In this document: in pieces, positions 1,382 to 46,041 of the stretch
Layout: every line of letters begins with the position of its first letter
How positions within the stretch are numbered: position 1 is the stretch's first letter
Source of the DNA: Octopus vulgaris
Lineage: Eukaryota
NCBI GenBank assembly: GCA_951406725.2
Contig: OX597837.1
Location: 39,680,001-39,744,000, forward strand
DNA length: 64,000 nucleotides
Direction: 5' to 3'
The notes under the pieces: generated by a model
The model's input: the letters and a program-made list of their open reading frames with translations, nothing else
Database searches by the model: none
Told to the model about the DNA's origin: nothing
Program-made: the position numbers and the translations under genes

Positions 1382-1464
1382 ATTAATCAATTTCATTGAC
1401 CCTAGTACTTGATTTGTACTCTAATTTATCACTGACCCTGGAAAGACAAAAGGGAGGACGTTAC

Positions 1465-1608
1465 CTTTAACCTTTCCGTAAGCTGCTGGATTCGCTGGTT
1501 CTTCTCGTCGTCATGTCCATCTGCAGATTTGCTGCGTTTCTCCATGCTGTGCATCTTGCGCAAGAACGTTTTATGCAACCGCTCATGTTCGGTTCTTAGA
1601 AGAGCTGC
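1465..1608 (-). CDS. CEP63: CEP63/DEUP1-family, coding exon 4 (AALLRTEHERLHKTFLRKM..QQLTERLK); gene continues beyond the window start
   Basis: 144 nt, phase 0/0, TTCCAG acceptor and GTAAC donor; coiled-coil-like peptide. Confidence 0.8.
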
Positions 1609-1948
1609 CTGGAATGGTAAAAAGCAAAGCAAAAACTCATTGGATAAATCAAAGTATGATGAAGAACTGAATAATTTATCATCATCATCATCATCGTTTA
1701 ACGTCCGCTTTCCATGCTAGAAACCAGACCAAACCAGACTGGAGTCTGGTGCAGCCCCTCAGCTTATCAGCTCTGGTCAAAAACTGTCTAACCGATGGAA
1801 AGCGGACGCTGATGATGACAATGCTGATTGGATGGAGTTTGAGGAAACGGAATATTATTTATTCCGTTTGCAAAACAATGGGGACCAAACAGTAATAATA
1901 AAAAAAACAGAAAATAAAATCCCAAAGAATTCTACCAAATTGCTTTAC

Positions 1949-2044
1949 CTTTGACTTGAGATTTGTCACTTGTGTCTCGTGTATCTCTTCTGCTTTCTGT
2001 TTCTCTGCCGTGAGCCATTCGACCTGAGACTGCAGTGCCAGGAT
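1949..2044 (-). CDS. CEP63: CEP63/DEUP1-family, coding exon 3 (ILALQSQVEWLTAEKQKAEEIHETQVTNLKSK)
   Basis: 96 nt, phase 0/0, polypyrimidine-CAG acceptor and GTAAA donor; coiled-coil-like peptide. Confidence 0.8.
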
Positions 2045-2169
2045 CTGTCAAAGAGAATTTAACCGTTTAGCATTCAGGTTATTCTGTGAAATGTATTGCT
2101 CATTTATTCACATTGTTTTGAATCGATCAAGCATTATCTCGTAGCTTCGAGATTTTGGTAGTGTACTCT

Positions 2170-2369
2170 CTCTTTACTCTTTCATTTGTTTCAGTCATTT
2201 GACTGCGGCCATGCTGGAGCACCGCCTTTAGTCGAGCAAATCGACGCCACGACTTATTCTTTGTAAGCCTAGTACTTATTCTATCGGTGTCTTTTGCCGA
2301 ACTGCTAAGTTACGGGGATGTAAACACACCAGCATCGGTTGTCAAGCGATGTTGGGAGGACAAACACAG

Positions 2370-2406
<37 letters not shown>

Positions 2407-2874
2407 CACGCACATACATATATACGACGGGCTTCTTTCAGTTTCCGTCTACCAAATCCACTCACAAGGCTTTGGTCAATCCGAGGCTATAGTAGAAGAC
2501 ACATGCCCAAGGTGCCACACAGTGGGAGTGAACCCAAAAGTATCTATCTATCTATCTATCTTCTACTATAGTCTTGGGCCGACCAAAGCCTTGTGAGTGG
2601 ATTTGGTAGACGGAAACTGAAAGAAGCACATCGTATATATGTACATATATGTATATGTGTGTGTGTATATGTTAGTGTGTCTGTGTTTGTCCCTCACAAC
2701 ATTGCTTGACAACTGATGCTGGTGTGTTTACGTCCCTGTAACTTAGTGGTTCGGCAAAAGAGACCGATAGAATAAGTACTAGGCTTACAAAGAATAAGTC
2801 CTGGGGTCGATTTGCTTGACTAAAGGCGGTGCTCCAGCATGGCCACAGTCAAATGACTAAAACAAGTAAAAGAG

Positions 2875-2876
<2 letters not shown>
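2170..2876. mobile_element. Two oppositely oriented copies of SINE family A (2170-2535 minus, 2560-2876 plus)
   Basis: Both match the family A consensus (internal TA/TG microsatellite, GTAAAAGA tail). Confidence 0.85.
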
Positions 2877-2927
<51 letters not shown>

Positions 2928-2967
2928 GAAAGAAGGTTTGAACATACAATTTTAAAAGATGTTTATT

Positions 2968-3010
2968 TACTTTACCGGTTTCACTCTTAGGAAAAAGATT
3001 GTCAAAAGTA
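2968..3010 (-). ncRNA. Minimal hammerhead-ribozyme-like motif (U3-A8 core variant)
   Basis: Minus strand reads UACUU-UUGACAA-UCUU..AAGAgu-GAAA-CCGG-UA-AAGUA. Confidence 0.5.
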
Positions 3011-3478
3011 GAAGTTTGGTCAAAAGTAGAAGTTTGGTTGCGTTAATTATTGGTTGTTGCAAATTGCTACATTACATATATATCGTCTTTGGTAACAAGG
3101 AGATGTTAAGGACATAAAATAGTTTAACAAGTTCCTTAAAATATTGGGCACAAAAGATTACAATATAAATAATCATTCTCAAGAACATGAAGCATATGTA
3201 ATATAAAGCATATTACTCTACCACTGGTATTCGAGTACTCTTTTTTCCACCTTGTTTCACATTTATGTGTTTACTCCGGTATAACTATTATATATATATA
3301 TATATACACACACAAACATATAATGGGCTTCTTTCAGTTTCCACCTACAAAATCCAGTCACAAGACTGGTCAGTCTGTGGCTAACAATGCATAAAGTGCC
3401 ATGCAATGTAATTGAACCTGAACTCACATGATTCGTAAGTAAACTTAAAGAATAAAGCTTTGAAAGTCTGCGACTGAC

Positions 3479-3671
3479 CTTTTTGGAATTCTCTTCAAGA
3501 GTTATTTTCTGTTGCTGACATTCCTTTGTCTTCTTCTCAAAATGTTTATAAACTTTCTTGACTTGTTGTTTCAAGTCGGTCTCGCGGTTCTTAACAAGAA
3601 TATCGATATGTTGAACCAATTCTTGTAATTCTTGCTCACAGGATCTCATCAAAACGCCATCGACCGGGAGT
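3479..3671 (-). CDS. CEP63: CEP63/DEUP1-family, coding exon 2 (..LPVDGVLMRSCEQELQELVQHIDILVKNRETDLKQQ..ENSKK)
   Basis: CAG acceptor 3674-3672, GTCAG donor at 3478. SCEQELQELVQHIDILV matches the CEP63/DEUP1 N-terminal signature (human CEP63 recalled as SCEAELQELMKQIDIMV). Confidence 0.88.
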
Positions 3672-3783
3672 CTGAAGAGGAAAAGAGGCGAAAGGGAGAA
3701 TCATAAAAACTGAGATTACCAAATGAAACCCAAATGTAGAAACCTTATTAACCATGTTTATAATAGTTTATACTAGTTGGAGA

Positions 3784-6770: not shown

Positions 6771-7516
6771 TTCTTTTGCTTGCTTTTTCTGTCTCTGGAA
6801 AAACGTGTTCTAACTTGACAAACGACCCACGTCTCATCTCGTGGACAGAGTGTGTGCATGGGGGAAAATGGATGGAGTGGGGTGTGTGAATGTGGATCAG
6901 GTGGGGATTGCTTGGTGGTGGTTGGGTGGGTGGTGGTGGTGGAGGAGAAGAATTTAAAGATGTGAGTTTTTGTTTTATGTTGTCCTATTCTTTTATAATC
7001 ATTTTTACTCATATATATATTTTTATATATATATATATATTTCTTTACTGCCCCATAGAGGGGACAAACAAGGACAGACGAAGGGATTGAGTCGATTATA
7101 TCGACCCCAGTGCGAAACTGGTACTTTATTTATCGACCCCAGTGTGAAACTGGTGCTTTATTTATCGACCCCAGTGTGAAACTGGTGCTTTATTTATCGA
7201 CCCCGATAGGATGAAAGGCAAAGTTGACCTCGTCGGAATTTGAACTCAGAACGTAACGACAGACGAAATACCGCTAAGCATTTCGCCCGGCGTGCTAACA
7301 TGTCTGCCAGCTCGCCGCCTTAATATATATATATATATATATATATAGGTGTAGGAGTGGCTGTGTGGTAAGTAGCTTGCTTACCAACCACATAGTTCTG
7401 GGTTCAGTCCCACTGCATGACACCTTGGGCAAGTATCTTCTACTATAGCCTCGGGCCAACAAAAGCCTTGAGTGGATTTGGTAGACGGAAACTGAAAGAA
7501 GCCCATCGTATATATG

Positions 7517-7577
<61 letters not shown>

Positions 7578-7597
7578 CATATATACGATGGGCTTCT

Positions 7598-7629
<32 letters not shown>

Positions 7630-10204
7630 TACGATGGGCTTCTTTCAGTTTCCGTCTACCAAATCCACTCACATATATATATATATATATATATATATGT
7701 ATAAAAATATATGTATATATATATTCTTTGTAAGCCTAGTACTTATTCTATTGGCCTCTTTTGCCGAACCACTAAGTTATGGGGACACACCAGCATTGGC
7801 TGTCAAGCGATGTTGGAGGGACAAACACAGATACACATATATATACATACATATACGACAGGCTTCTTCCAGTTTCTGTCAACCAAATCCACTCACAAGG
7901 CATTGGTCGGCCTGAGGCTATAATAGAAGAAACTTGCTATGCAGTGGGAATGAACCTGGAACCATGTGGTTGGTAAGCAAGCTACTTACCACACAGCCAT
8001 TCTGTTGATGTTTAAAAAGAAAAAGTGTAAAGTTTTCAGAATCTGATGTTAACAATGTCCCAGAGAGGGAAGAATGAACGGAAAACACCTAAAAAGGGTT
8101 TTACCATATCTTTTTATACCAATACTAACTTAATTGGTAGAATTCTGCTTCAAGCACCCCATATAAATCATCATAACGTTTTAGTTTTTGGAATTTTCAG
8201 AAAATTTTTGCGATTTTGGATACTAAACATGGGAATTCGTACAACTAAGAAAAAAAAATTCTTCTTAATTTTTCGAATATTTTTCTTGAAAATTATTTAA
8301 AAATACGGACAGTAGGAGTGGCTGTGTGGTAAGTAGCTTGCTTACCAACCAGTCCCTCTGCATATCACCTTGGGCAAGTGTCTTCTATTATAGCCTTGTG
8401 AGTGGATTTGGTAGACGGAAACTGAAAGAAGCCTGTCGTATATATATATATATGTATATGTACGTGTGTGTGTATGTTTGTGTTTGTCCCCCCAACATCA
8501 CTTGACAACCGATGCTGGTGTGTTTACGTCTCCGTAACTTAGCGGTTGACCGATAGAATAATTACTAGGCTTACAAAGAATAAGTCCTGGGGTCGATTTG
8601 ATTCGACTAAAGGCGGTGCTCCAGCATGGCCGCAGTCAAATGACTGAAACAAGTAAAAAAGTAAAAGAGAGAGAGAGTCTGAATCTTTTGCTTAAATCCC
8701 AGCAATATTAAATGTGTTTTCGAGGTGAAAGATATCGAAAGACATCAATTCGTCAGAGTGAAAACGAAACGAGGAGGGTACGAGGTGGTTGTGAGAAGTG
8801 CTAAAAATAACAGCTAAATAACCCTTAAATCACACAAAATGTTTTCTTCCGGATTCAAAATTCAAAAAAAAAAAAAAGAAAAGAAAAACGAATTACGTGG
8901 GGTTTAAATACGAAGGGTCTCTTGCTATAGCCCTGGGCCAACCAAGGCTTTGGGAGTAGATTTGGTAGACAGAAACTGAAAGAAATCCTTCGTTGTGTGT
9001 GTATGTATATATATATATATACACACGTGTGTGTTCTATTACCGTTGTTGGTTTGTTTACGTTCTTGGGCGTAACTTCGGTATAAGTACCGGATACATTT
9101 CAAGAAAGTGCTTTTTTTATATATGGGGGGTTAGGGTTTGTGTTAGGGGTGTGAGAAAAGGGTTTCTGTTATCTTCAGAAATGGGTAAACAAAGTCACGT
9201 ATGTACTTATACCGAAGGATCGCCAAATACGGTGCTTAAACCAGAATTCTACAACAGGGTGATCCTTCGGTATACGTCCTTGAAAATGAATTTTTGAAAA
9301 ATTTCATTAAAACCTTTACATCGTAAAATTACGGAAGAGACGAATTAAAGAGGCGCCAAAATTTGTAAATTTTTTACATCGACATTATACATGCACACTT
9401 ACACTTCCATACACACCTTTCGTCTATTACCTTTTAGCCTGTTGCAGTCATTGGACTGCGGCCAGGCTGGGGCACCGCCTCAAAAGGTGTTTAGTCTAAC
9501 AAATCGCTGCCAGCACTTATTTCCTTTTTTTAAAAGTCTGGTATTTATTTTATTGGTCTCTTTTGCGGAACTGCTAGGTTACAAGGAAGGCGATCCTTCG
9601 GTATAAGTACCGTAAGTGGCTTTCTTTACATTTCCGAAGATAACAGAAACCCTTTTTTCCCACCCCTAACCCCCGATATATATATATATGTAAAAACACA
9701 TTTTTCAAATGTATTTGGTACTTATACCAAAGTTACGCCTAATAACGTAAACAAACCAACAACGGTAAAAGAACACACACGTGTGTATATATATATATAT
9801 ATATATACATACACACACACACACAACGTAGGATTTCTTTCGGTTTCTGTCTACCAAATCGACCCCCAAAGCCTTGGTTGGCCCAGGGCTATATAGCAGG
9901 AGACCCTTGCTCAAGATGCCACGTAGAGGGAACCGATTCCGAAAGCACAGCAGAAATTTACAATAAAAAAAAAGGCAATACTTACATATAAAGTTCTGTT
10001 ATCATTCTTTAATTAAATATATATATATATATATTAATTAATTAATTAATTGTTTTCGTGGCTTCTTCATCAATTCACAGGAATTCTTCTGATTTTTTTT
10101 TTACCAAGAAACAAAATAAAACAAAACTAAACAAAAAATATATTTTGAAGAAAGAAATATTTTTTTGGAACCAAAATATTTGAAAAAAATGAAAACAACC
10201 AGCT

Positions 10205-10777: not shown

Positions 10778-11103
10778 GCTCCGAGTCCAATTTCCCCCCC
10801 ACCCAGGTCGACTTTGTCTTTAATCCTTTCAGGAGTCGATATAATAAGTACCAGATGAACATTGGTGTCGATGTAGTCGACTAGCTCCCTCTAAAAATTT
10901 CAGGTTTTGTGTCTGTATTCACCTCTTCTCCGATCTTGCCCCGATCAAGCTGACCTCTGATCAACGGTGCTTCTAACCATGACCTCTTCATTTCATTTTT
11001 TTTCGTAGCATATTTAAGAATACATTATCCGGCATAACAATATACATGTGTGCCTCTTCCTACGGATTTCGTTTCATCATACACACACACGAAATTATAT
11101 ATA

Positions 11104-11231
11104 CAGGGTGTCCCAAAAAAATGTATACACATAGTGGTTCGGCAAAAGAGAACGATAGAATAAGTACTAGGCTTACAAAGAATAACAAATTTACAATTAT
11201 TTAAGGTGTGTATACATTCTTTTGGGACACC

Positions 11232-11234
<3 letters not shown>
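11104..11234. mobile_element. Tc1/mariner-type MITE
   Basis: TA-cagggtgtcccaaaa..atgtatacaca / tgtgtatacatt..ttttgggacaccctg-TA inverted ends; carries an internal SINE A fragment. Confidence 0.75.
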
Positions 11235-11273
<39 letters not shown>

Positions 11274-11619
11274 ATAATAACAAAGGGTAAAATTAATTAA
11301 TTAACTAGTAATCAATAATTTCACCAAGTAGAATTTGGCATGAAAAAAGAACCATTTCTCTGTAAACTTTAGTAATATTTTATAATTATGGTTCAGCAAA
11401 GATTTGCTTTACCACATACCGAAGTTTAGAAATAGCAGCCAAAGAACCTTAGCTATTTCTTCTACTTTAAGAAGTGCGTGGGTTGTTTTCGAGTACTTTG
11501 TTTTTGTCCGGGAGTCTCTTCTTAAAGTAGAAGAAATAGCTAAGGTTCTTTGGCTGCTATTTCTAAATCTTCTGTATGTGGTAAAGGAAATCTTTGCTAT
11601 ATATATACACATACATACA

Positions 11620-14676: not shown

Positions 14677-15003
14677 TTAGCTTTCCTTTGATGTTACTGC
14701 ACCTCTTATGTGTCCATAGCTTTACACCGGGTACATTTTATGGAATTTCTACCTACGCCTTTTCTACAGATTGAGCAGGGCCATCTACCTGAAGGGATTT
14801 GTGGTTTGTCTACCTTCCTACTTATTAAGACTTTGGTTTTTGCTAGATTGGCTCTAAAGCCCTTCAGTTCTAGACCTTGCTTCCATAACTGAAACTTCTC
14901 CTCTAGTTCTGATAGTGACTCAGCTATTAGAGCAAGGTCATCAGCATAGAGAAGCTCCCAGGGGCATCCTGTCTTGAATTCCTCTGTTATTGCCTAGAGG
15001 ACT
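14677..15003 (-). mobile_element. RTE-like LINE reverse transcriptase fragment
   Basis: Translates as ..TGCPWELLYADDLALIAES..KGFRANLAKTKVL..WPCSICRKGVGRNSIKCTRCKLWTHKRCS (YADD motif plus Cys-rich insert); contains a stop codon. Confidence 0.85.
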
Positions 15004-15345: not shown

Positions 15346-15753
15346 ACTCTTTTACTCTCTTTTACTTGTTTCAGTCAGTTGACTGCGGCCATGCTGGAGC
15401 ACTGCCTTTAGTCGAGCAACTCGACCCCGGGACTTATTCTTTGTAAGCCCAGTACTTATTCTATCGGTCTCTTTTGCTGAACCGCTAAGTGATGGGGACG
15501 TAAACACACCAGCAACGGTTGTCAAGCAATGCTTGGGGGACAAACACAGACACACAAACACACACACGCATATATATATATACATATATACGACGAGCTT
15601 CTTTCAGTTTCCGTCTACCAAATCCACTCACAAGGCTTTGGTCGGCCCGAGGCTATGGTAGAAGACACTTGCCCAAGGTGCCACGCAGTGGGACTGAACC
15701 CGGAACCATGTGGTTGGTAAACAAGCTACTTACCACACAGCCACTCCTGCGCC
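15346..15753 (-). mobile_element. SINE family A in COMMD2 intron 3, full length
   Basis: Matches the consensus. Confidence 0.88.
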
Positions 15754-16689
15754 TATTGTTCATCATCGTCACCTAAGGGCCTGGTCTACCTAGCTGCTGT
15801 GAAAAGATACCATGGGGCAGCTGTGTGGTAAGAAGTTTGCTTGCCAACCACGTGGTTCCAGGTTCAGTCCCACTGTGTGGATCCTTGGGCAAGTGTCTTC
15901 TACTGTATCCTTGGGCCAACCAAAGCCTTGGGGAGTGGATTTGGCTGATGGTAACTGAAAGAACACACACATACACACACAGACATACACAGACACATAC
16001 ACACACACATCAAGAAATTTGATTGCTATTTTTAGCAGTTTGAATGACCACATAAAGGCTACTTCCTTTGATATTAATTCACTAAAGACCCATGCCAGCT
16101 TGGAAAAGGGGACGTTAATGATGATGATGATGATGATGGTGGTGGAGAGGATGATGATGATGATGATGATGATGATATTGTTGTTATTATCATTATGATT
16201 AAGATGATGAGCTGGCAGAATCATTAGCATGCCAGGTGAAATGCTTTGCGGTATTTCGCCCATCGCTACATTCTGAGTTCAAATCCTGCCGAGGTTGACT
16301 TTGCGTTCATCCTTTCGGGGTCGATAAATTAAGTACCCGTGAAACACTGGGGGCTGATGTAACAAAAATTTGAAATCATCATCATCATTATCATTATTAT
16401 TATTATTATCATTATCATTATTATTATCATTATTATTATTATTATCATTATCATCATTATTATTATTATTATTATTAAGGTGGTGAGCTGGTAGAATGCT
16501 TAGGCAGAATGCTTAGTGGCATTTTGTCCAATATTTTGTTCTAAGCTCAAATTCTGCTGAGTTTGAACTTTGCCTTTCATTCTTTCAGGGTTGTTAAGTA
16601 CCAGTAAAACACTGAGGTTGATGTAATTGACTTGTCCTCTCCCTCAAAATTTCAGACCTTGTGTTGTTGTTGTTGTTATTATTATACGA

Positions 16690-17045: not shown

Positions 17046-17100
17046 ATAATCATTCTTCTTCTTCTTATTGTTGTTATTATGATAATGATGTTCTTTACAG

Positions 17101-17274
17101 ATTCCTGAATCAGAATACAAAGAGTCTTTAAGTATTCTTGGCTTCCAAGATGACAAAATAGACATTTTACTCACCATGTACCTGGAAAACAGAGGAAACA
17201 TCCGGAATATTCTTTCGGAAATGTCTATGGAGTTGCCGCATTATGACAACTTAGAATGGCGTTTTGATGTTCAG
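17101..17274 (+). CDS. COMMD2: COMMD2 exon 4 (IPESEYKESLSILGF..LPHYDNLEWRFDVQ)
   Basis: TTTACAG acceptor, GTGAG donor; start of the COMM domain, LEWRFDV. Confidence 0.95.
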
Positions 17275-17393
17275 GTGAGCAAATATTCTTATTTTTTTTT
17301 ATCATTTATCTAAAAAAAAATCATTATATTTATTCTTCGTTGCCCTTTTCAAGCCTATCCAGATTTTCTTTTCTTTTGCTTTTTTTATTCCAG

Positions 17394-17591
17394 GTTGCAA
17401 GTCGATCCATGAGGCACCAGGTGATGCCAAACGTTCTGCTGAAGCTCCACTTAGAAGAGGACGATAAAGTCACGACACACCCTCTACAAACCGACCCCGG
17501 GAACCTTGTTCAGTTAACGAAGGAACTGGAAAAAGCTCTGGATGAGATGAAATCAGCCTTTTGCAGACGCATTGTTAGAAACATAGACTGA
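17394..17591 (+). CDS. COMMD2: COMMD2 exon 5 (VASRSMRHQVMP..QTDPGNLVQLTKELEKALDEMKSAFCRRIVRNID*)
   Basis: Follows a 119-nt intron; COMM domain C-terminus. The five exons sum to 600 nt = 199 aa plus stop. Confidence 0.95.
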   Translation, partial: VASRSMRHQVMPNVLLKLHLEEDDKVTTHPLQTDPGNLVQLTKELEKALDEMKSAFCRRIVRNID

Positions 17592-17994
17592 ACATTCTCC
17601 TTAATTTATCAACACCTCTGTTTGTCTGTGTGTGTGTGTGTATATATGTGTATATATATATGTGTATATATATACTTTATTTAAAGCAGCAGAAACGGGA
17701 AACTCAGAGTAACAGGCTTTGTTGAATTTTCTGCTGCTTTAAATAAAGCATATTACTCTACCACTGGTATTTGAGTACTCTTTTTTCCACCTTGTTTCAC
17801 ATTTATGTGTTTACTCCGGTATATATATATATATATATAGAATGGTTGTATACTGTCAATCTAACACGAACGTGTCAGTAGGGGGGTACACCACTGCTGT
17901 TTAGCCCTAGGAAGCATCGATGCCTCCTGATGGCTTTGACACATTTTTCTTGTGACCTTATATACATTTACGAAGGGGAGACAAATACCCCCAG

Positions 17995-18193
17995 GTAAAA
18001 TAATATGTGACAATTATTCGGTAGCCAAGATAAAACTCTGAGTTTCTGATGCCGAGGTGGAAATCCACAACACCATCTCTTCGGTTATCTGGCCATCTGT
18101 AAAATGCAAATTCGTGAAGTGTTCCATATTTTTTAAGATCCGAAACTCAGAGTTTTGTCTTGGCTACCGAATAATTGTCACATATTACTTTAC
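17995..18193. repeat. Fold-back element, ~50-bp arms, with a hammerhead-like motif inside
   Basis: gtaaaataatatgtgacaattattcggtagccaagataaaactctgagtttc pairs with gaaactcagagttttgtcttggctaccgaataattgtcacatattactttac. Confidence 0.85.
18028..18090 (-). ncRNA. Hammerhead-like motif (U4C core variant)
   Basis: AGAUAA-CCGAAGA-GAUG..CAUC-a-GAAA-CUC-A-GAG-UU-UUAUCU. Confidence 0.45.
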
Positions 18194-18263
18194 AGATAAA
18201 TTTCCTCTATTTACATAATACTGAGGTCTCTTTCTTTCTTTTGTTATCTTACCGTTTTTACCA

Positions 18264-18294
<31 letters not shown>

Positions 18295-18552
18295 TGTATA
18301 CACACATACACACACTCATGCATCTGTTTCTTCCGATGTTTTTTTTTTTTTTTGTATCTTGACCAAACACCATTTCATGAAAATTCTTGGAGATGGATAT
18401 TTAATTCCACAACTGGAACAAAAACAATGAACCATTTTTGCAAAAATTTTTTTATAAAGAATATTACAAAACAAAACAAAAAAGACCCCAATAATTCCAA
18501 AGCTGTTGCCAAAACATACCATACACCTTCACACAGGTAAGTGTGTATATGC

Positions 18553-18589
<37 letters not shown>

Positions 18590-20618
18590 TACTTTATGTG
18601 TGTTGGTTAAAACAAAATGTAAATTGAAGAATATATATTTAAAAAGAAAAAATCGTTTGAGTTTTGTTGTCTGTGCGTCCTAACTTGAGTTTTATTGTTG
18701 CTTAAATAATTTAAGATTTTGGGTCTTTTGTTACCAATTTCCTGACATTTCGTGCATGTGCTCATCATACTCTCTCTCTCTCACTTGTTTCAGTCATTTG
18801 CGGCCATGCTGGAGCACCACCTTTAGTTGAGGAAATCGACCTCAGGACTTATTCTTTGTAAGCCTAGTACTTATTCTATCGGTCTCTTTTGCTGAACCGC
18901 TAAGTGACGTAAACACACCAGCATCGGTTGTCAAGCGATGTTGGGGGTGGGGGACAAACACAAATATATATATATACATATACGACGGGCTGCTTTTAAT
19001 TTCTGTCTACCAAATCCACTTACAATGCTTTAGTCGGCCCGAGTCTATAGTAGAAGACACTTCCCCAAGGTGCCATGCAGTGGGACTGAACCTGGAACTC
19101 TTTGAAGTAGGATCCTCTGACTTCAGTGCACTTACTTTAGTGCTCCTCCAGAACTGGTTTCAGCCGGGTTGGTAGCGAAAGGGGTAATGTATTTCTCAGG
19201 GAGATTCAGTGTGACACAGAATGTGACAAGGCTGGCCCTTTCAATTACAGGTACAACTTGTTTTTGCCGACTGAGTGGACTGGAGCAAAGTGAAATAAAG
19301 GGTCTTGCTCAAAGCCATAACGGACCACCAGAAATCATAACCTTACGTTCATCAGCTGAATACCCCAACGGCTAAGCCACTTGACTTCACCTGCACTTAA
19401 CGAGAAATAGAAACAAGATTTTTTTGATATTGGAAAATATATTCTTTATTGAGGTGAAATATTTTTTGTTCTTTTTGTTGACATTATACAAGTCTTGATG
19501 AAACAAAACACTAAAATATGAAACACATTGGATAACGAGGAGGGTTTTCTCAAATAGGTATAAGGGCCACAAATTTTTCGATGAGTAAATAATCATGTTC
19601 CTTATTTGGCCCACAATAATTGAAAGTATAAAGTGAACTTTGGTGGTATTTGAACTCAGAATATAAAGGGATGTATATTGTAAGCTAACTAAAATACTGT
19701 AAAGCACTTTGCCCGTTGCTCCACCAATTCTGCACCACAAAGATATTTTCTTATTTGTTTCACTCTTTGGACTGTGGCCATGCTGGAGCACCATCTTGAA
19801 ATTACTTTTTTTTAAGGCTTGGTACTTATTCTAGTGGTTATCTTTGGTGAACTGCTAAGTTACAGGAACATAAACAAACCAACACTAGTTGTCAGGTGGT
19901 GGTGGTGGACAAACACAAAGACCTATATGCATACACATATGACAGGCTTCTTTCAGTTTCCATCTACCAAACTGACTCACAATGCTTTGGTCGGCCTGAG
20001 GCCACAGTGGAAGACACTTGCTCAAGCTACCACACAGAGAGATAGAACCCAAAACCCTGAGGCCAAGAAGCAAACTTTTTTACCACGCAGCCAAAACACG
20101 AAGCTTTGGTTTTATAAGGAATCAAACATGGAAGTCTACGAGGCTGAATGGCAGAAACAATAAAAATATTGGATAAATGCATTTAATATTGTCATGTTCT
20201 GAGTTCAAATCTCACCAAAGTTGAATTTATCTTTCATCCTTCTGGGGTTCTTTGGTAGATTACACCCCATTTACATACTAGTGTCAAGCTAACTGACTTT
20301 GCTGTTTTTCTCCAAAACTTGTGGCCAGGAACCAATAACAGAAAGTAGAGAGCAAAGAAAAGGAAAAAGGTTCTTTGGATTTTATTGTCTCTTTAAAAGA
20401 TTTGTTTTTTTTTTTGGTGGAGTCTGTTACGTCAGTAGCAGCTGGAAATGTAATTCTTGGCAAAATTGAGCGAATTCTATGTAGATTATATTTTCAAAAT
20501 GCGGGGTTTATTGTAATAGAGTAAGGGGGCCAATTTGTTGGTTTGATGAGGAAGCAGGTCATCGGAAGGTGATTTAAAAAAAAAAAAGAAACAAAGCTTC
20601 TGTTTCATGTGTGTGAGA

Positions 20619-20672
<54 letters not shown>

Positions 20673-21012
20673 AGAATTCAAAAAAGAAAAACAAAAAAAA
20701 CAACAACAAAAGATGAATACAGGTGGTGTAGACAACAAATAAATGCATTAGTTTAATGCTTGGGAAGTGAAAAAGTCTTTAATATTTCGAGCCTAAGCTC
20801 TTCCACAGAAAGAAACAAGGGGAGAAAATAAAGAATGTGTAGTGGCTAGCAATCTATATATACATATATATATGCACACACATACATAGAGACATAGATA
20901 GATAAACATTTCTTATAGATGTGTGTGTATGTATATTTATATGTATATAATATGCAATTGTGTATGTGTGTATGTGTATGTATATATATATATATGTACG
21001 TATATATATATA

Positions 21013-21266
21013 ATAGAAAAAATAAGGTATTCGGAGATCTGGATGGTTGTACATATACAAATATTTATAAACATCACATGTTTTTACAAGTCACGTATAA
21101 GTGCTTTTATCTACTCTAGTAGATTCTTCAGATTTTGAAGAAAATCTGAAGAATCTATTAGAGTAGATGAAAGCACTTATACGTGATTTGTAAAAACATG
21201 TGACATGTTAATAAATATTTGTATATGTACAACCATCCAGATATCTGAATACCTTATTTTTTTCTA
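21013..21266. repeat. Long palindrome (~125-bp arms, 4-nt loop)
   Basis: Arms meet at cagatttt-gaag-aaaatctg (21129-21148); flanked by (TA)n. Confidence 0.9.
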
Positions 21267-21304
21267 ATATATAATATCTGTACATCACCTCCAAACCCTC
21301 TAAT

Positions 21305-21349
<45 letters not shown>

Positions 21350-21943
21350 CACAGACTAAATCATAGTATGTTGTATACTATATGTGGTCCAAATCTCATT
21401 GGTGAGTGGTGTGTCTTTTTTCTATCACAATCAGGTATCATATATATATATATATATATATATATGATGTAAATAATAACATTATTTCGTTAAGATTTAA
21501 ATATTACATTATGCAATAAACATCAGATCTATATATGCATATATACATGCAAATACACACACACACAAGTCCATTTATAAAACTTTAAATTATGCTTTTT
21601 GTTTCAACATACATTTCTTTTTTCATGCTAGGAATATATATATATATATGAGATATTGTGATTCGGGGGCAAGTAGTTTTACATTTGGAAATCCCAGTCC
21701 TATGTCATTAATTAAGGGAGCTGAGAGAAGTTGAATGTCTGGTTTGTATCTGAGCAGCATAACAACATCGCTGTAATAGAAAGATTTGAACTCCTGAGTA
21801 TATTACTGGTATCTCCAAGGTGGTAACTTTACTGTGACTGGTATTGGTACCTTCTTAAATGTTGGTATTTTATGAGTATCACATATTCAGAACTCAGGAG
21901 AACAACATGTGTGTTTGAGTATATACACACATATACGCACACA

Positions 21944-22129
21944 TTTTATAAGCTTAAGGCTTGTAAGCAATCCCCGTGTAACAACTAAAAAAAAATAGCC
22001 CAATAATGAAATATATAAACCCTTGATGGCAAAAATACTTTTTCTGTCAAGGGCTTATATGCCCCAATATTAGGGGCTATTTTCTTTAATCCTTACACAG
22101 TGATTGCTCATAAACTTTAAGCTTATAAA
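21944..22129. repeat. Imperfect fold-back / MITE-like element
   Basis: ttttataagcttaag / ttaagcttataaaa ends; cccttgatggcaaaaa / tttttctgtcaaggg centre. Confidence 0.7.
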
Positions 22130-22189
22130 ATACTATTATTAATTACAGAATTGCAAAAAAATTGACACTGCTTACCAAAAAACCACTGC

Positions 22190-22440
22190 ATATATATATA
22201 TGAAATACAAAATGGGACAAGAACGCAAAGCATCCGGACGACTAGGTGATACAAAAAAGGACAACAAAACATCCAGATAGACGATATAAAAAAACAAGGA
22301 CGGGTCATTCTGAGTTTTCTACCCGTCCTTGTTTTTTTGTATCGTCTATCTGGATGTTTTGTTGTCCCTTTTTTGTTTCACCTAGTTGTCCAGATGTTTT
22401 GCATTCTCGTCCCATTTTGTATTTCATATATATATATATA
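22190..22440. repeat. Long palindrome (~115-bp arms, 15-nt loop) within (TA)n
   Basis: ..aaacaaggacgggt-cattctgagttttct-acccgtccttgttt.. Confidence 0.9.
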
Positions 22441-22813
22441 GCGGCGTACGTACACTTTGTTCTCTTATATATATAGGTTTGTTGGTGCAAACAGGAAAAA
22501 TAGAACTAAAAATATGAGCATATCTATATATTTTATTAATATTTAGCAGAATTAACAGAGTAACTCGTGGGTCGAGAGTTTTGTGAATTGGCACTCTGAT
22601 GAGTGCCAATGCATGAAACCTTCAGACCTTGAGTCACTCTGTTGCATCTGGTAAATATTAACAAACATATATATATATATATATATATGAAAATTAGAAA
22701 AAAAACACCTTTAATCAATTCAAAATGAACAATTAAATTACACCATCTAAAAAATTACATATAATAGAAATATTAAAATTAAAATATTATTGTTATTTTA
22801 ATATTTCTATTAT

Positions 22814-23207
22814 ACTCTTTACTCTTTTACTCGTTTCAGTCATTTGACTGCGGCCATGCTGGTGCACCGCCTTTAGTCGAGCAAATCGACCCCGGGACTT
22901 ATTCTTTTGTAAGCCCAGTACTTATTCTATCAGTCTCTTTTGCCGAACCGCTAAGTGACGGGGACGTAAACACACCAGCATCGGTTGTCAAGCAATGTTA
23001 GGGGGACAAACACAGACACACAAACACACACATACATACATATATATATATACATATATACGACAGGCTTCTTTCAGTTTCCGTCTACCAAATCCACTCA
23101 CAAGGCATTGGTCGGCCCAAGGCTATAGCAGAAGACACTTGCCCAAGATGCCACGCAGTGGGACTGAACCCAGAACCATGTGGTTGGTAGGCAAGCTACT
23201 TACCACA
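22814..23207 (-). mobile_element. SINE family A inserted into a fold-back element
   Basis: Consensus match; flanks 22690-22745 and 23208-23265 are reverse complements. Confidence 0.85.
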
Positions 23208-23529
23208 TGGTCTAATTTAATTGTTCATTTTGAATTGATAAAAGGTGGGTTTTTTTCTAATTTATATGTATATATATTATATTGTGTGAAATTTGATTTA
23301 GTATTTCTAAATTGAATTTTTCCCTGTAAGTTAGGATTAATATTCCCTCAAATAATAATTATATATATATATATATATTTTATTCATCATCATCGTTTAA
23401 TGTCTGCCTCCCATGCAGGCATGGGTTGGACAATTCAACAGGAGCAGGCCAGGCAGAAGAATACCCCAGGCTACTGTGTCTATATGTGTATATATATATA
23501 ATGTTCTTTTCAGCAGCAGTTTTTGAGAG

Positions 23530-24273: not shown

Positions 24274-24453
24274 TCAGTAGGTAGACACTGGTTTTGTCTT
24301 GAAGTATACATATGTGATGATTAAGCAGACAAGGAGAATGAAAACAGGTAGGACAATGGTGAAGACCTTCTGCTTGTTCTCCAGGAAGTCCTTCTTCCTC
24401 TCCCGCTTCTCTTTTTTCGACTCTTTCTTCACTTGACCCTTTAATTGTCGCAT
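24274..24453 (-). CDS. SMCO4: Single-pass membrane and coiled-coil domain protein 4 (59 aa; MRQLKGQVKKESKKEKRERKK..TIVLPVFILLVCLIITYVYFKTKP)
   Basis: MRQLKG start, basic coiled coil and one C-terminal TM segment as in SMCO4. A CAG acceptor at 24478-24476 implies an upstream non-coding exon. Confidence 0.92.
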   Translation of the reverse strand: MRQLKGQVKKESKKEKRERKKDFLENKQKVFTIVLPVFILLVCLIITYVYFKTKPVSTY

Positions 24454-24889
24454 CTTGAAACAGTTGGTGGAATTTCTGTCGAAGATAAAAACAAACAAAA
24501 CAATGTCAATAATAATTCTTGGTGTTATAGATACAAGGACTGAAATTTAAGGGGGCGGGTGGGCTAGTTGATTACATTGATCACCAGTGCATTACAGTGG
24601 CATGTAAAAGCACCCATTACACTCTTGGAGTGGTTGGCGTTAGGAAGGGTGTCCAGCTGTAGAAACTCAGCCAGATCAGATTGGAGCCTGGTGCAGCCAT
24701 CTGGTTTGTCAGATCTCAGTCAAATCGTCCAACCCATGCCAGCATGGAAAGCAGACGTTAAACGATGATGATGATGATGAATGTAGTGATGGGTGAAATA
24801 CTGCTAAGCATTTTGTTCAACATGCTAACGATTCTGTCAGCTGACCTCCTTAAATGACCACCTACAGAAGGCACAGGGTCCGAAATGTT

Positions 24890-25640: not shown

Positions 25641-27438
25641 TTCAGAGGGGCAGTAATGTTGATATAAAACAGTGTTCCGCAACCTATGTGGTTTGAAATT
25701 GTGGCAGAGAGCCAGCAGTCGGAAGAAATGTCAATAAGCATTTTGTCCGGTGCAATAACGATAATAATAATAACCGTTTCTAATTTAGTCTGAAGGCGTA
25801 ACATCTCGCCCGGTTTAACATCAGAACCTGGCGAATCGAGTACCTTTAGTCAAATCCATTCTGTTGTAAACATTCGGACCGGTTTGGAGACATCTTTCTC
25901 CCCACCCACAACAGTTTTTCGGGACCCTATAAAAGATCATAAACAATACTTTCTGGCTAAAAAAAAAACACGAAAGGGGAAAAAGTCTCCGCCCACAAAT
26001 GGTTTTCTAACGGTGAAGAACATTCTGGAATATCGCCAAGTTTTTTAAAATCCATTAAAATTTCAACGGAAATATGGTAACAAAAGAGTTACGAAGTGTT
26101 GCCACGTATTAAGGTATGACATGTCCTGAAAGTGCTGACAAGGGGAAAAAATTCCGGTAAGGAAGGAACAAGAGCATATGTACAGAATAATGCCCCACCA
26201 ACTATTTCCGCTTAATTTCCCGAAACATGCATATCTTTTAAGTGGAATGTTGCAGCAATATATCATTGGATAGTACAGTAGATCTGGTAGATAACACAGT
26301 TTTGATGTTTAAGATATGAAATCTGAAAGGAATGTGAAAAGTGCTAAATCTACAGAAATTGGTGCTAACAGAGCCAAGGCAGAATGACAAAACGATTCCG
26401 AAACCTATCCCGAAAATCTAATTGTTTTTTCCAAATTCTATGAATATAATTTTAATCGATGCCCTCGAAAATAAATTTCTGCAAAATATCATCTAAAAAT
26501 ATGCATTTTAAACAGTTATGAGGAAATAAAAGTGAGAAGGAGAGAGAAGAATGATGCAAAAGTCCTTTAAAAAATTGTTTTAAACAAGTTTCATTAATAT
26601 AATCATAAGCTACATACTCAAAAATATACATCTACAAAATTTCATTAAAATATATGAATTTTCAGAGAGTTACGAAAAGAAAAATTAAAAAAGAAATGGG
26701 GCATCAAACTGTAGTTATACCATAACCTCTACGCGCTCATAAGATACGCTAGAAATAACAGCCAATCAATCCCCGTTGTATAGTCCTGAAGAGGCGAGGC
26801 GATGGTCACAGCTGGGACCTTTTTATCGTTTGATGCTAATTTAAAAAAAAAAAAAATTTCTACCCATGCTAATTGCAAAATGCTAATTAGTGAGAAATTA
26901 ATAATAATAATAATAATAAGGGGTTACGAACCTTCAACCCGGGGAGGTTTTCTAACGTCTTCGCCTTCTTTCATTAAATTCTCGTTTAAGATTAAATAAA
27001 TAAATATACACGGCGCTCTATTTCATATAGCGATACGGAGTGTCGATAATAAAGGCTTCTGATTGGCTAAAATTAGTTAAGAATAAAAATCTTTTAAAGG
27101 TTTATAATTTTTTAAGTTTTAGTTTCTCTTAAAAGTGAATGGAATTTTTATAATTAGAAGATAAAACTACATCTGTTTTTACAGTCTTTTTGTTTTAAAT
27201 AATATAAATAAATTTTTGAAAGGCTCCGTGCAGCAAATGGAAAAAAAAAAATATTATAGGGTAACTGTGAAGAATAGCGGCGCGGCGAAATTTACAAAAT
27301 AAACGGGGAATGGGTACTACTTAAAAAGAGTGGTCCCGGTGCGCGCACTCGCGTACTCGCGCATCCGCGCTAGCTAGTCGTGACTAGTCGATCCTTACTT
27401 TGTGTTTTTGTGTTTTATTTACTTTGTGTAAAAAAGTT

Positions 27439-27862
27439 GGATCCTTTCGGTTTGAACGGCAGTTTTTTCTAGCGGTGTCATATGAAATTGTCAGCCATAA
27501 TTATGACCCTAGTATCGATCTATTGCATTTCAATCTCTTTTAAGGTTAGGGTTAGGGGTGGGGGGAGGGTATCTTTTTTTCTTCAGAAATGTAAATAAAC
27601 CCAATCTGTTTCTTAAACGAGAGACATATTCATACGGCACAGAATGGTTTTTTTTTTTACCTCAATAGACGTTAGTGATTGGTTGAAATTGCAGAAATTG
27701 AAGAAAAAAAACAACAAATGTCTTACAAACTATAGAATTTTCTCAATAAAACCAAGAGAAAAAGATGTTTTATTTTGACACATTCTACCAGTATACGAAG
27801 TTTAAAAGTGTTTAGTTACGTGGAAATTATTTTAAAAAACTGCCGTTCAAACCGAAATAATC
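27439..27862 (+). mobile_element. TIR element with internal TTAGGG motif, copy 3
   Basis: Colinear with 13214-13625. Confidence 0.8.
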
Positions 27863-27950
27863 AAAAAAATTATTGTGGCCATGCTGGGGCACCGCCATTT
27901 GGTGTTGCTACATGATTTTACTTCACGAATGCTTTTTAGCAATTGCTATT

Positions 27951-34000: not shown

Positions 34001-34134
34001 TGGGGCACAAACACACACACATATAATAAATGAAAAAATGCATTAAATACAACAAAACGTCCAGTTAGGACAGACACAGAAGAACCCTAATTCTTCATCG
34101 GTTATCGACCAAAATACTAACACTCATTTTCGTG

Positions 34135-36059: not shown

Positions 36060-36075
36060 ATACCTTTCTGGCCTC

Positions 36076-36115
36076 TGCTGCTGAAGAGGAGATAACTACT
36101 CCGAAATGCATGCGC
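36076..36115 (+). ncRNA. Hammerhead-like core (degenerate)
   Basis: CUGAAGA-GGAG-auaacua-CUCC-GAAA-UGCAU with palindromic stem III; stem I and cleavage base not intact. Confidence 0.4.
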
Positions 36116-36754
36116 CCCACAATCCATACATAAATACGTACATGTATGTATGTATGTATGTATGTGTGTATATATGTAGATATGCTTATTAGTGCGAGTA
36201 TGTGCATCTGTGGCTGTGTTTGTTCTCCTCTACTGCTTGACAACTGGTTTCTTTAGCTCTTCGTAACTTAGCGGTTCGGTTAAAGAAAGCAACATAATTG
36301 AATAAGTACTAAACTCTAAAAAGTAAATAAGTACTGAGGTCGATTCGTTTGAGTAAAACTTTTGGAGGCAGTGCTCCAGTATGACCGCTGTCCAATCACC
36401 GAAAACAAAAGACAACATTAGCCAATATGTTTTCCTTTAATTAAGGCTACAGGGTGTGATTTGAGGACGATCTAGCTGCTATTTTTAGCATATCGAAATA
36501 CGACATTACGACTCTCACATTGTTGCTTAACTTTTGGTCAGCTCTAAGATTCTAATCGTGACCATCCCGTCTTGTGTTTTTTAATTTTTATGTATAATGT
36601 TTCTATCTAAGATGAGTGGCTGTGTTGTATGCGTTTGAGTGGCTATGTGGTAAGAAGTTTGCTTCACAGCCGCATGGTTCCGGGTTCAGTCTCACTGTGT
36701 GGCACCTATAGCCTCGGGTCGACCAAGCCAAAGGTGAAACTGAAGGAAGTCCGT

Positions 36755-37080: not shown

Positions 37081-37462
37081 CGTGTGTGAGTGTGTTTGTG
37101 TTTTTGTGTGTGTGTGTTGTGTGTGTGTGTGTCTTTGTGCCTGTGTTTGTACCCTACCGCCTGACAACCGTTGTTGGAGTGTTTACGTACCCGTCACTTC
37201 GCTTTTGGGTGAAACAGACCAATAGAATAAGTACCATTTGACTAAAAATTCTTCAAGGCGGTGCCCCAGCATGACCGCGGTCTCATGACTTATACAAGTA
37301 AAAAAATATAAGATAAAAGAAACATATTCATTCTTCATACTTGCCCGGCAGATTCGAACCCAAATACTTTAATTGCTGTTCTGTACACATCACAGGAGAG
37401 CAAGTCCTACCTTTGACGATGACAGTGTCTTCATAACACATTAACGTTATTTGCATAAGGGA

Positions 37463-37508
37463 TTCTGAAGCACCGGTGTTTCGACATATTTTGTCTCGTC
37501 AGTCGGAA
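37463..37508 (-). ncRNA. Minimal hammerhead-like motif
   Basis: UUCCGA-CUGACGA-GACA-aaaua-UGUC-GAAA-CACCGGUG-cu-UCAGAA. Confidence 0.5.
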
Positions 37509-38551
37509 ATTATCCAGACTGTCGATATTAAACACAATAGCAATTAGCATATTTGTGATCATACCAGCCGGAACGTGCTTATTATAAATATGCCGATCAT
37601 CATTTTCGATCACGTTGTACACTCTGCACATAACAATTTTATTACCCAATATGCTTTGTTTTAATTATGACGATAGGATGTGATTTGAGGGCGATTAGGT
37701 TGCTACTTCTAACAGATCGAATGACAACTTTGAGACGACGTTATTGCAAAATAAATCTTAAATGTCACTGACTAATCACCTCTAATCAGCAACTAAAAAA
37801 TTTAACAAATGTTGTAAAGTGATTAAAAATCAACAAAGGTTTAAAGTAATTAACAAATGTATAATATTAATGGCCATTAGTTGATTAATGTATTAACAAT
37901 GGTTATTAATTGATTATTAAATGAATCGACAATAATTATTCGTTGATTAGCAAATGTATTGATAATGGTTAATCAATAATTATAACATGTATAAGTAATT
38001 GTTATTAAGAATTTATGAAATGTATTAATAATGTTAATTAATTGAGTATTAAATGAATCAGAATAGTTATTTATCAATTGGCAACAATATTGATTATGGT
38101 TATTCAGTAATTATTAAATGTATTAGTAATTGTTATTAAGTAATTATTAAACGTTTTAATTATGGGTATTCACTAATTAGCAAATATATTGTTGCTGTTC
38201 GTTACTTCTCGAGCCATTCCTGGCTCATAAGGGCCGGTTTCCTGGTTTCATTGGCGTATAGGTTTCCCACCTGGACGGGACACCGGTCCGTCACAGGTGA
38301 GATGCAGGAGGAAAAAGTGAGAGAAAGTTGTGGCGAAAGAGTCAGCAGAAGTTTCGCCATTACCTTCCGCCGGAGCCGCGTGGAGCTTAGGTGTTTCGCT
38401 CATAGACACACACACACACACACCGTCTGAGATTCGAACCTGCGATCCCTGGAACGTGAGTCCGCTGCTCTGGCCACTAAGCCATGTGTCTCCACAGCAA
38501 ATATAACATTAACTAATATTCAGTGTTTATGAGATGTATTGGTTACAAAGT

Positions 38552-38930
38552 GGAAGCGAAATGGCCCAGTGGTTAGAGCAGCGGACACGCGGTCGGAGGT
38601 CGCGGTTTCGATTCCCAGACCGGGCGTTGTGAGTGTTTATTGAGCGAAAACACCTGAAGCTCCCCGAGGCTCCAGCAGGGGGTGGTAGCGAACCCTGCTG
38701 TACTCTTTCACCACATCATTTTCTCACTCTTTCTTCCTGTTTCTGTTGTACCTGAATTTCAAAGGGGTCAGCCTTGTCACACACTGTGTCACGCTGAATC
38801 TCCCCAAGAACTACATTAAGGGTACACGTGTCTGTGGAGTGCTCAGCCACTTGCACGTTAACTTCACGAGCAAGCTGTTCCGTTGATCGGTTCAACTGGA
38901 ACCCTCGTCGTCGTAACCGACGGCGTACCA
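38552..38930 (+). mobile_element. tRNA-derived SINE family B
   Basis: A-box tggcccagtggttagagc and B-box ggtttcgattccc; copies at 39625-40006 and 44635-45012; related minus-strand copies at 38185-38495 and 42360-42533. Confidence 0.85.
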
Positions 38931-45501: not shown

Positions 45502-45569
45502 CGGGAAGAGGAGAGAAGGGAAAGAGAGGGATATGTTGGAGAGGTGAAGTGAAACCAATAGCAACAGCA

Positions 45570-45582
45570 ATAATGATAATAC

Positions 45583-45616
<34 letters not shown>

Positions 45617-45727
45617 AATGATAATAATAATAATAATAATAATAGTAATGATACTAATAATGATAATAATATTAATAATGATAATAATAATGATAATAAT
45701 AATAGTAACAACAACAACATCAACAAC

Positions 45728-45774
<47 letters not shown>

Positions 45775-45790
45775 TAATAATGATGATGAA

Positions 45791-45837
<47 letters not shown>

Positions 45838-45859
45838 TGATGATGATGATGATAATAAA

Positions 45860-45926
<67 letters not shown>

Positions 45927-45955
45927 GTAATAACAATAATGATAACAACAACAAC

Positions 45956-46005
<50 letters not shown>

Positions 46006-46040
46006 TGATGATGATGATAATAATATTAATAGTAATAATA
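45570..46040. repeat. (TAA)n/(TGA)n microsatellite
   Basis: Directly visible. Confidence 0.95.
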
Positions 46041-46041
46041 A

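Follow-up and report, generated by a model that had tools for sequence, protein, structure and literature searches.

The window, a 64-kb stretch of Octopus vulgaris DNA, contains hairpin-forming palindromes that sit between two convergent host genes. Palindromes were located by self-BLAST and by alignment of their arms. SINE inverted pairs (2175-2876, 7469-7671, 15599-15963 and 38305-38739), microsatellite hairpins and spaced inverted-repeat pairs (11096-11242 and 27437-27865) were dropped before counting, which left seven palindromes, A to G, with the following parts.

17675-17695, minus strand: short inverted arm of A; the predicted cut site lies 17 nt upstream of its 5' end, and (TA)n at 17633-17674 adjoins its outer end
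17696-17819, plus strand: long arm of A; it carries a hammerhead 3' half with GAAA at 17699, a palindromic helix III and the cut nucleotide at 17711, is shared up to 17748 and goes on as a 71-nt one-sided tail to (TA)10
17995-18099, minus strand: left arm of B, in which a type I hammerhead motif is complete; inner limit about 18094-18099
Within that arm: B hammerhead, stem I 18085-18090/18028-18033, core 18084-18078 (U4C), GAAA from 18046, cut nucleotide 18034
18105-18134, plus strand: copy of the U6 snRNA 3' end, 30 nt with six T, at the B junction and in the sense of the right arm
18138-18263, plus strand: right arm of B, beginning 4 nt ahead of GAAA (18142); shared part to 18193, then 70 nt to (TA)n, a putative tail
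21013-21136, minus strand: left arm of C, passing through the core and ending 37 nt upstream of the predicted cut site; adjoins (TA)n
21141-21302, plus strand: right arm of C (core 21146-21152, stem II, GAAA 21169), arm to 21266, then a one-sided tail of about 35 nt to (TA)n 21303-21347; public contig records reach 21284 and 21295
21943-22189: F, palindrome 21943-22131 with a one-sided tail 22132-22189; multi-copy family, no hammerhead core seen
22202-22427: D, between two (TA)n tracts, with an atypical core-like motif at the fold; its very abundant family extends upstream of the fold (loose ends 22310 and 22332)
22441-22596, minus strand: left arm of E, arm 22531-22596 and a one-sided tail of about 90 nt (22441-22530) supported by contig depth and by variant rows at 22508 and 22519
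22596-22666, plus strand: right arm of E, from core position 3 (CTGATGA), with stem II, GAAA 22616 and cut nucleotide 22635; reaches (TA)11
11272-11598: G, palindrome 11395-11598 with 123 nt extra at one side, bounded by a TA tract at each end; no hammerhead core seen

A preliminary description had placed hammerhead-ribozyme letters at or near the fold of at least four palindromes, the four that it located being A, B, C and E here, and all four were where it had put them. The arms of A (17675-17695/17728-17748) are identical at 21/21 positions, and their loop encloses the hammerhead 3' half as described (GAAA-CTCAGAG-TA, 17699-17711). The arms of B (17995-18049/18138-18193) are 94.5% identical. 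C (21013-21266) has arms of 95.1% identity, a 4-nt loop and its centre at 21138.5, and it turns just before CTGAAGA as had been claimed, with the core 7.5 nt right of the centre. E, with arms of 78.5% identity, does turn on CTGATGA (centre 22598.5, within the core), but the extent 22554-22643 given for it was too small, the palindrome really covering 22531-22666. D, F and G have a similar build without a canonical core, and G lies outside the 17670..23270 region. The location in or near (TA)n was borne out: with tails counted, 13 of the 14 outer ends adjoin a TA or CA/TA microsatellite, the exception being the left end of B. Target-site duplications are unreadable within TA tracts.

An assembly artefact was considered and rejected, since in six of the seven palindromes the two arms show 2-22% divergence and contigs from independent runs span the folds of E and F.

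Hammerhead motifs at the folds

A strict core with stem II and GAAA occurred four times in the window, compared with 0-1 times in 20 shuffles. Two of these cores are away from folds (36081, plus strand; 37502, minus strand). A strict core lay within 15 nt of 2/7 non-SINE palindrome centres (0.014 for random centres, P = 5e-5), and with one mismatch allowed a core was near 3/7, which none of 20,000 random draws reproduced. Within the window, cores are strongly enriched at folds relative to randomly placed centres. The half motif alone, as in A, was no commoner in the window than in shuffles (5 versus 0-7).

The full hammerhead-like motif reported in 17995-18193 is a complete type I motif, which the left arm of B carries on its minus strand. 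Its core is CCGAAGA (C at position 4, one core mismatch) and is accompanied by a stem I with 6/6 pairs, a stem II of 4 bp and one extra base, GAAA and a palindromic helix III. C and E have the strict core CUGANGA with stem II, GAAA, helix III and a cut triplet. The 5' strand of stem I is cut off in A and E, and about two pairs can be seen in C. With the family majority letters of public contigs, helix III of C is palindromic again and stem II of E is repaired, and in the E family the U3-A8 swap was found with both changes together in one contig. In A, B, C and E the hammerhead reads away from the fold, and by this sense each palindrome is a head-to-head pair with an inverted, 5'-truncated copy.

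No hammerhead descriptor matched within 60 nt of the centres of D, F or G; loose-end contigs show that in the D family the first core box is one base too long and A15.1 is missing. No Rfam hammerhead passed the threshold: the best was Hammerhead_3 at E (14.5 bits versus 48.5, E 2.1), with no hammerhead match for A, B or C, and over the whole window the best 150 of 433 matches were microsatellite or hairpin artefacts. Forcing the hammerhead fold in B was computed to cost 28 kcal/mol relative to the hairpin. The palindromes are likely dead relics, in which the long hairpin would form in preference to the ribozyme. If transcribed, the hairpins would give long double-stranded RNA.

Multi-copy families and variable turn points

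The arms of C, D, E and F were compared with public contigs. Summed contig depth at the arms was about 14,000-740,000 against 36-65 in the unique flank (run X1), depth not being equal to copy number; a single variant place was covered by as many as 122 contigs, and the arm families were present in three organisms. Contigs over the locus from X4, possibly an RNA run, were left out of the evidence. The families extend past the fold, as seen from loose ends at 22039, 22310, 22332 and 22566 and from C-family contig records that begin at contig letter 30 or 71. In other copies of E and D the arms are joined at different places. Judging from the contigs for C, D, E and F and from a solo family-A piece, longer dispersed elements have been 5'-truncated at varying points. 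A one-sided extension was found in six of the seven palindromes, D having none, and the tail belongs to a repeat family in A, C, E and F. The tail of A has a second copy at 3203-3279 (98.7%) without an inverted arm.

These results bear on whether the palindromes could be fold-back DNA transposons or MITEs at TA sites, in which the hammerhead letters are coincidental. The TA flanks, the hairpin shape, the lack of a core in F and G and the frequency of the half motif in shuffles would all suit such elements. Yet symmetric fixed termini and a constant centre were not seen in the contig comparison of C, D, E and F; outer ends are unequal, centres vary and family sequence continues beyond the fold. 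The U3-A8 covariation, the enrichment of strict cores at folds and the capture of U6 also argue against this origin, which is disfavored for A, B, C and E and which we judge extremely improbable.

A Penelope-like element (PLE) origin is likely and is well supported by anatomy, namely the multi-copy families, one-sided tails, (TA)n targets, variable turns, Hydra-like hammerhead, U3-A8 covariation and captured U6 end. PLE membership is inferred from these features rather than from a link to a PLE ORF. No PLE reverse transcriptase (RT) or GIY-YIG was found in 21 selected frames, nor did a scan of the window in all six frames for short motifs reveal one. The earlier statement that the window has no RT or GIY-YIG ORF holds for these, but a LINE-type RT fragment is present at 14709-14993. 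Sixteen of 17 short arm words were absent from the searched part of the Craig 2021 consensus file for Naiad, Chlamys and Hydra, and the one match was unrelated. A 22-nt family-A word gave four matches in metagenomes, all of them short chance matches in microbial-looking DNA, and a family-D word had no match in viral contigs. The earlier view of PLE-derived relics of several families agrees with the anatomy.

The preliminary description went further and proposed a candidate system of non-autonomous hairpin elements. Short, retrozyme-like hairpin elements forming a separate class, copied into RNA and mobilized in palindromic form by PLE proteins, would agree with the lack of coding sequence nearby and with the X1, X3 and X6 contigs that span E-family folds; non-LTR retrozymes have been argued to derive from PLEs. 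Such elements are difficult to reconcile with a region (17600-23300) that has no head-to-tail tandem units, only periods of 2-16 nt, or with turn points that vary among copies and families that reach upstream. In addition, the family-A copy at 3203-3279 lacks an inverted arm, and the hairpin is predicted to block the hammerhead fold. We consider a separate class quite improbable. A distinct system was not upheld, as the families extend upstream of the fold and an inverted truncated copy is a published by-product of ordinary PLE insertion.

Arm ends, the B junction and a proposed origin

We propose that each palindrome consists of two short, 5'-truncated end-pieces that meet head to head in (TA)n, several multi-copy families being represented. 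Such pairs likely arose as by-products of ordinary PLE retrotransposition, with a separate reverse transcript probably primed by each of the two target strands. We assign this reading a probability of about three in four. The PLE enzyme would nick both strands at an AT-rich site, and each nick would prime a cDNA on uncleaved element RNA. A cDNA could start at one of two nearby internal sites, leaving a tail on one arm. Both cDNAs would stop early, at times jumping to another RNA end such as that of U6, and would then be joined via their 3' ends. One purified PLE protein is reported to cut and extend both strands, to use two internal start sites and to use mainly uncleaved RNA.

The junction of B is a detail of some value. 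The U6 3' end scored 15.9 bits (E 0.3) with Rfam U6, and a published U6 3'-end primer matches 18113-18134 with one mismatch, as in none of 100 shuffles. The left arm holds 45-50 nt of hammerhead that are absent from the right arm, while U6 lies in a sense that only the cDNA of the right arm could have copied. Since each arm has templated sequence that the other lacks, two separate reverse transcripts are favored over snap-back in B. The junction would represent two independent reverse transcripts with a jump to U6 in vivo, and it fits two-strand priming in vitro better than self-priming.

Self-priming was proposed by Arkhipova 2013 from junction palindromes (PMC3846280), and snap-back had also been the preliminary reading here: the origin would still be PLE, with each palindrome a single cDNA that snapped back on itself at the ribozyme. 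C speaks for it, with equal arm ends, a 4-nt loop and 6/6 listed non-majority letters common to both arms, as snap-back would give; C in this respect runs against the two-transcript view. The loops of A and D consist simply of one arm's overhang. B contradicts snap-back, since the sense of U6 is impossible for a single fold-back cDNA and each arm is templated beyond the other. E probably does so too, its loop being templated by the right arm and its tail lying on the left arm, unless a right tail was later lost. The arms of D, E and F share just 1/8, 1/6 and 0/5 listed non-majority letters, which later decay also explains. Snap-back is compatible with A, C and D, and we regard it as unlikely to be the general origin.

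None of the eight canonical arms ends within 5 nt of the ribozyme cut site and seven run through it, so that the ribozyme cut was rejected as the cause of the turn. Six of the eight end inside the hammerhead core region, a window chosen post hoc. That arm ends cluster inside the hammerhead but never at its cut site is a detail of some value. The earlier claim that inversion occurs preferentially at the ribozyme is suggestive, based on four insertions, the post hoc window and pre-selected cases; F and G turn without a core. With the hammerhead only 30-125 nt from the start sites, short copies would in any case end in or near it.

Within our proposed origin, the hammerhead structure may add a stopping bias, and the ribozyme cut would not be what makes the turn. 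A stronger version, which we put forward as a tentative and rather doubtful possibility, is that the uncleaved hammerhead signals the PLE reverse transcriptase to stop. On either target strand the cDNA would terminate in the fold and jump to a free RNA end such as that of U6, and the two would be joined there, so that the fold rather than the cut sets the turn. The function of the PLE hammerhead is stated as unclear in the literature, and the stop-signal reading, if true, would give it a role and would imply LINE-like template jumping by the PLE enzyme. Our literature search, with subscription papers and bioRxiv supplements outside its scope, found neither the PLE hammerhead described as a cause of reverse transcriptase stalling or truncation nor a PLE-U6 chimera or template-switch partner.

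Comparison with known systems

Among the closest known systems are Hydra-clade PLEs (Craig 2021, PMC8557442), which share (TA)n insertion, a canonical type I hammerhead about 30-120 nt from the 3' end and the helix III form ACTC-N-GAGT. In the hammerhead table of that clade, helix III has the letters of A and B, and stem II is that of the E family. The clade has a cephalopod member, and an inverted truncated copy was noted for Penelope-13_HM (PMC8557442). The octopus arms have no sequence match to the listed consensi, and the protein by which the clade is defined was not seen.

The minimal, small-helix-III PLE hammerheads of metazoans (Cervera and de la Pena 2014, PMC4209133) share the palindromic helix III, the extra base beside stem II, the U3-A8 covariant and opposite-strand motif pairs 100-700 bp apart. 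The octopus copies differ in being decayed or cut within the motif and are candidate ribozymes as judged by sequence. Non-LTR retrozymes are likewise non-coding and PLE-related with a type I hammerhead, but they are defined by head-to-tail tandem units, of which the octopus region has none.

Published PLE anatomy includes an inverted truncated copy, a 30-40 bp tail at one end and (TA)n targets (PMC3846280, PMC8557442). With the EN+ PLE insertion unit (Arkhipova 2013, PMC3846280; Craig 2021, PMC8557442) the octopus palindromes share the head-to-head inverted truncated copy, the tail at one end, the microsatellite targets and the junction palindromes. They differ in that both copies are reduced to 20-215 nt, with the pLTR end alone remaining, and in that several tails are longer (about 35-120 nt versus 30-40). 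Inverted truncated copies, tails and pLTR hammerheads have all been published, and the palindromes fit this described pattern as likely ordinary PLE debris. The unusual part is the one junction, in B, that holds a U6 RNA end. U6-LINE chimeras formed by template switching (PMC4476161) likewise have a 5'-truncated U6 3' end that lies upstream of a truncated retroelement (L2, RTE) and shares its sense, whereas the partner in B is likely a PLE arm inside an inverted pair.

Palindromes and hammerhead motifs

Comparison of the window with itself returned 23 close inverted pairs, from which seven low-copy palindromes (A-G) were retained. SINE pairs, hairpins made of microsatellite sequence and two inverted-repeat pairs separated by a spacer were left out.

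Fold-back palindromes from self-comparison, with arm 5' ends in nt from the predicted hammerhead cut nucleotide (minus, upstream; plus, downstream)
G, 11395-11598
A, 17675-17748; arm ends -15 and +17
B, 17995-18193; arm ends -16 and about -65
C, 21013-21266; arm ends -37 and -37
F, 21943-22131
D, 22202-22427; arm ends -6 and -21 (atypical motif)
E, 22531-22666; arm ends -39 and -34

The hammerhead motifs assigned to A, B, C and E in the preliminary description were present as stated. In B, a complete hammerhead sits on the left arm (minus strand) with stem I paired at 6/6 positions and C at core position 4, and the left arm alone was predicted by folding to adopt a three-stem shape. With a strict descriptor that required a core, at least 4 bp of stem II and GAAA, four matches were obtained in the window versus 0-1 in each of 20 shuffles. 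Strict matches lay within 15 nt of 2/7 palindrome centres (P 5e-5 against random centres), which upholds at the scale of this window the earlier claim that cores lie near folds; with one mismatch allowed, the count was 3/7. The 3' half motif alone was no more frequent in the window than in shuffles, all hammerheads were below the Rfam threshold, and no canonical core was found in D, F or G.

Two strict cores, at 36081 (plus) and 37502 (minus), are away from any fold. The latter belongs to a canonical-looking type I hammerhead (37440-37530, minus strand) with a long stem I and a near-palindromic helix III, a single-copy, retrozyme-like relic. The former (36060-36135) lies in a short segment flanked by two microsatellites and has a core, a 4-bp stem II and a helix III whose palindrome has decayed. 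The region of G (11272-11598) has arms of 97.5% identity, a spacer of 33-43 nt, a one-sided extension and TA tracts on both sides.

Arm ends and the origin of the junctions

The preliminary description proposed that inversion is made preferentially at the ribozyme by snap-back during reverse transcription. The cut site is traversed by 7/8 canonical arms, and none of the eight stops less than 6 nt from it. The template was therefore intact at this point, which rules out ribozyme cleavage as the maker of the turn. Six of the eight ends fall between -45 and -1. Under a null of exponential lengths, conditioned on a detectable short-loop palindrome, 1.1-3.0 were expected (P 0.0006-0.03, for an interval picked post hoc and only four insertions, chosen for having motifs, whose paired arms are not independent). 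A solo piece of family A ends at +32, outside this interval. The clustering of arm ends inside the uncut ribozyme, and never at its cut site, is suggestive, no more.

In snap-back, or self-priming, both arms derive from one cDNA. C fits this well, with equal arm ends and 6/6 non-majority letters common to both arms; A and D, like C, are compatible with either one cDNA or two. Junction B argues for separate cDNAs. It contains the 3' end of U6 snRNA (18105-18134; Rfam 15.9 bits, E 0.3), a fragment absent from the preliminary description. A U6 3'-end primer listed in PMC13219678 matches 18113-18134 with one mismatch (0/100 shuffles), and comparison by eye with a published U6 probe extends the match to 28/30 letters, both differences being at CpG sites. 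The fragment has the same sense as the right arm and lies 3 nt ahead of its start. Since this sense is not copyable by a plus-strand cDNA, the right arm must derive from a cDNA of its own, and so must the left, which has 45-50 nt of hammerhead missing from the right. E, in which the loop is templated by one arm and the tail (family sequence on one side only) lies on the other, points in the same direction more weakly.

Arm families and present state

Contigs of four public runs from three organisms were aligned to 20960-22720, which covers C, F, D and E. Each of these arm families was covered by many distinct contigs, at a depth in run X1 of about 14,000-740,000 versus 36-65 in unique flank, although depth does not equal copy number. 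Other copies run on upstream of the fold, and in the E and D families the arms are joined at differing places. In one E-family contig with a fully read junction, the long arm begins no more than 7 nt from core position 3 and the short arm stops 11 nt beyond the cut site; such joints are biased towards the core because they are visible only near the reference. A contig of run X4 (guessed to be RNA) crosses fold C at 21037-21191 with 19 differences, and may represent either editing of the hairpin or a further copy that turns at the same place.

One-sided family sequence extends about 35 nt beyond C, about 58 nt beyond F and about 90 nt beyond E. The 71-nt extension of A recurs with 98.7% identity at 3203-3279, as a solo family A 3' end that has no inverted arm and terminates at a TA tract. 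B and G have candidate tails resembling those of other palindromes, and D has no extension. Microsatellite adjoins 13/14 outer ends, and TA tracts connect F, D and E into a chain.

By majority letters from the best 40 of 233 rows, helix III of the C family becomes a palindrome and the E family carries a U3-A8 swap, with both changes within one contig, a pattern indicative of earlier selection for the ribozyme core. Family D (22190-22440) is very abundant, and its upstream sequence carries an atypical core-like motif (first box with an extra base, short conserved stem, GAA without the following A), possibly a hammerhead variant or remnant. A weak family D match (34049-34110, minus; 81% over 37 nt) adjoins a TA tract and a word resembling a decayed core.

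The hairpins have predicted energies between -32 and -177 kcal/mol, and the hammerhead fold, if forced on B, is predicted to cost 28 kcal/mol. The motif is incomplete in A, in E and in the right arm of B. Today the copies are probably inert. A-F lie between the COMM-domain and DUF4519 genes, which converge.

Host features (Pfam)
1432-3700, minus, CEP63 exons
17092-17591, plus, COMM-domain exons (gene end at 17591)
24277-24546, minus, DUF4519 gene

Elsewhere are a LINE-type RT fragment (14709-14993, minus; RVT_1, E 5e-5), a weak zf-RVT match (45548-46216, plus; E 0.03) and TA-flanked terminal inverted repeats of 28-36 bp enclosing a SINE fragment (11104-11234), presumably a small Tc1/mariner-type relic.

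Comparison with published Penelope-like elements

No ORF of a Penelope-like retrotransposon (PLE) was found in 21 selected reading frames of the window or by scanning all six frames for short motifs, and a short-word search of part of the Craig 2021 supplement gave no consensus match to the arms; PLE membership is therefore inferred from anatomy. On that anatomy the proposed PLE origin is well supported, but the separate hairpin system is not: the palindromes are likely new families of already known PLE insertion stubs. What retains interest is the grouping of arm ends within an uncut ribozyme and the U6-carrying junction of B. The latter resembles the 5'-truncated U6-LINE chimeras attributed to template switching in PMC4476161; we found no literature linking PLEs with U6 chimeras.

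The SINEs of the window would fit a cephalopod host. PLEs make up 6.83% of one octopus genome in a single supplement row. Craig 2021 (PMC8557442) describes PLE insertions into (TA)n targets in which a 5'-truncated copy is inverted and one end carries a tail of 30-40 bp; Arkhipova 2013 (PMC3846280) gives an account of this unit as well, with self-priming as the proposed mechanism. In the account of Frangieh 2024 (PMC11167929), a PLE protein cuts and extends both strands, two internal start sites define the tail, and the RNA is used mostly uncleaved. For PLE hammerheads, Cervera and de la Pena 2014 (PMC4209133) report that helix III is palindromic, that the U3-A8 variant occurs, that activity in vitro is low and that motifs can be paired on opposite strands. 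In the Hydra-clade table of the PMC8557442 supplement, hammerheads lie close to the 3' end of each consensus, and the entries include the helix III of A and B and the stem II of the E family.
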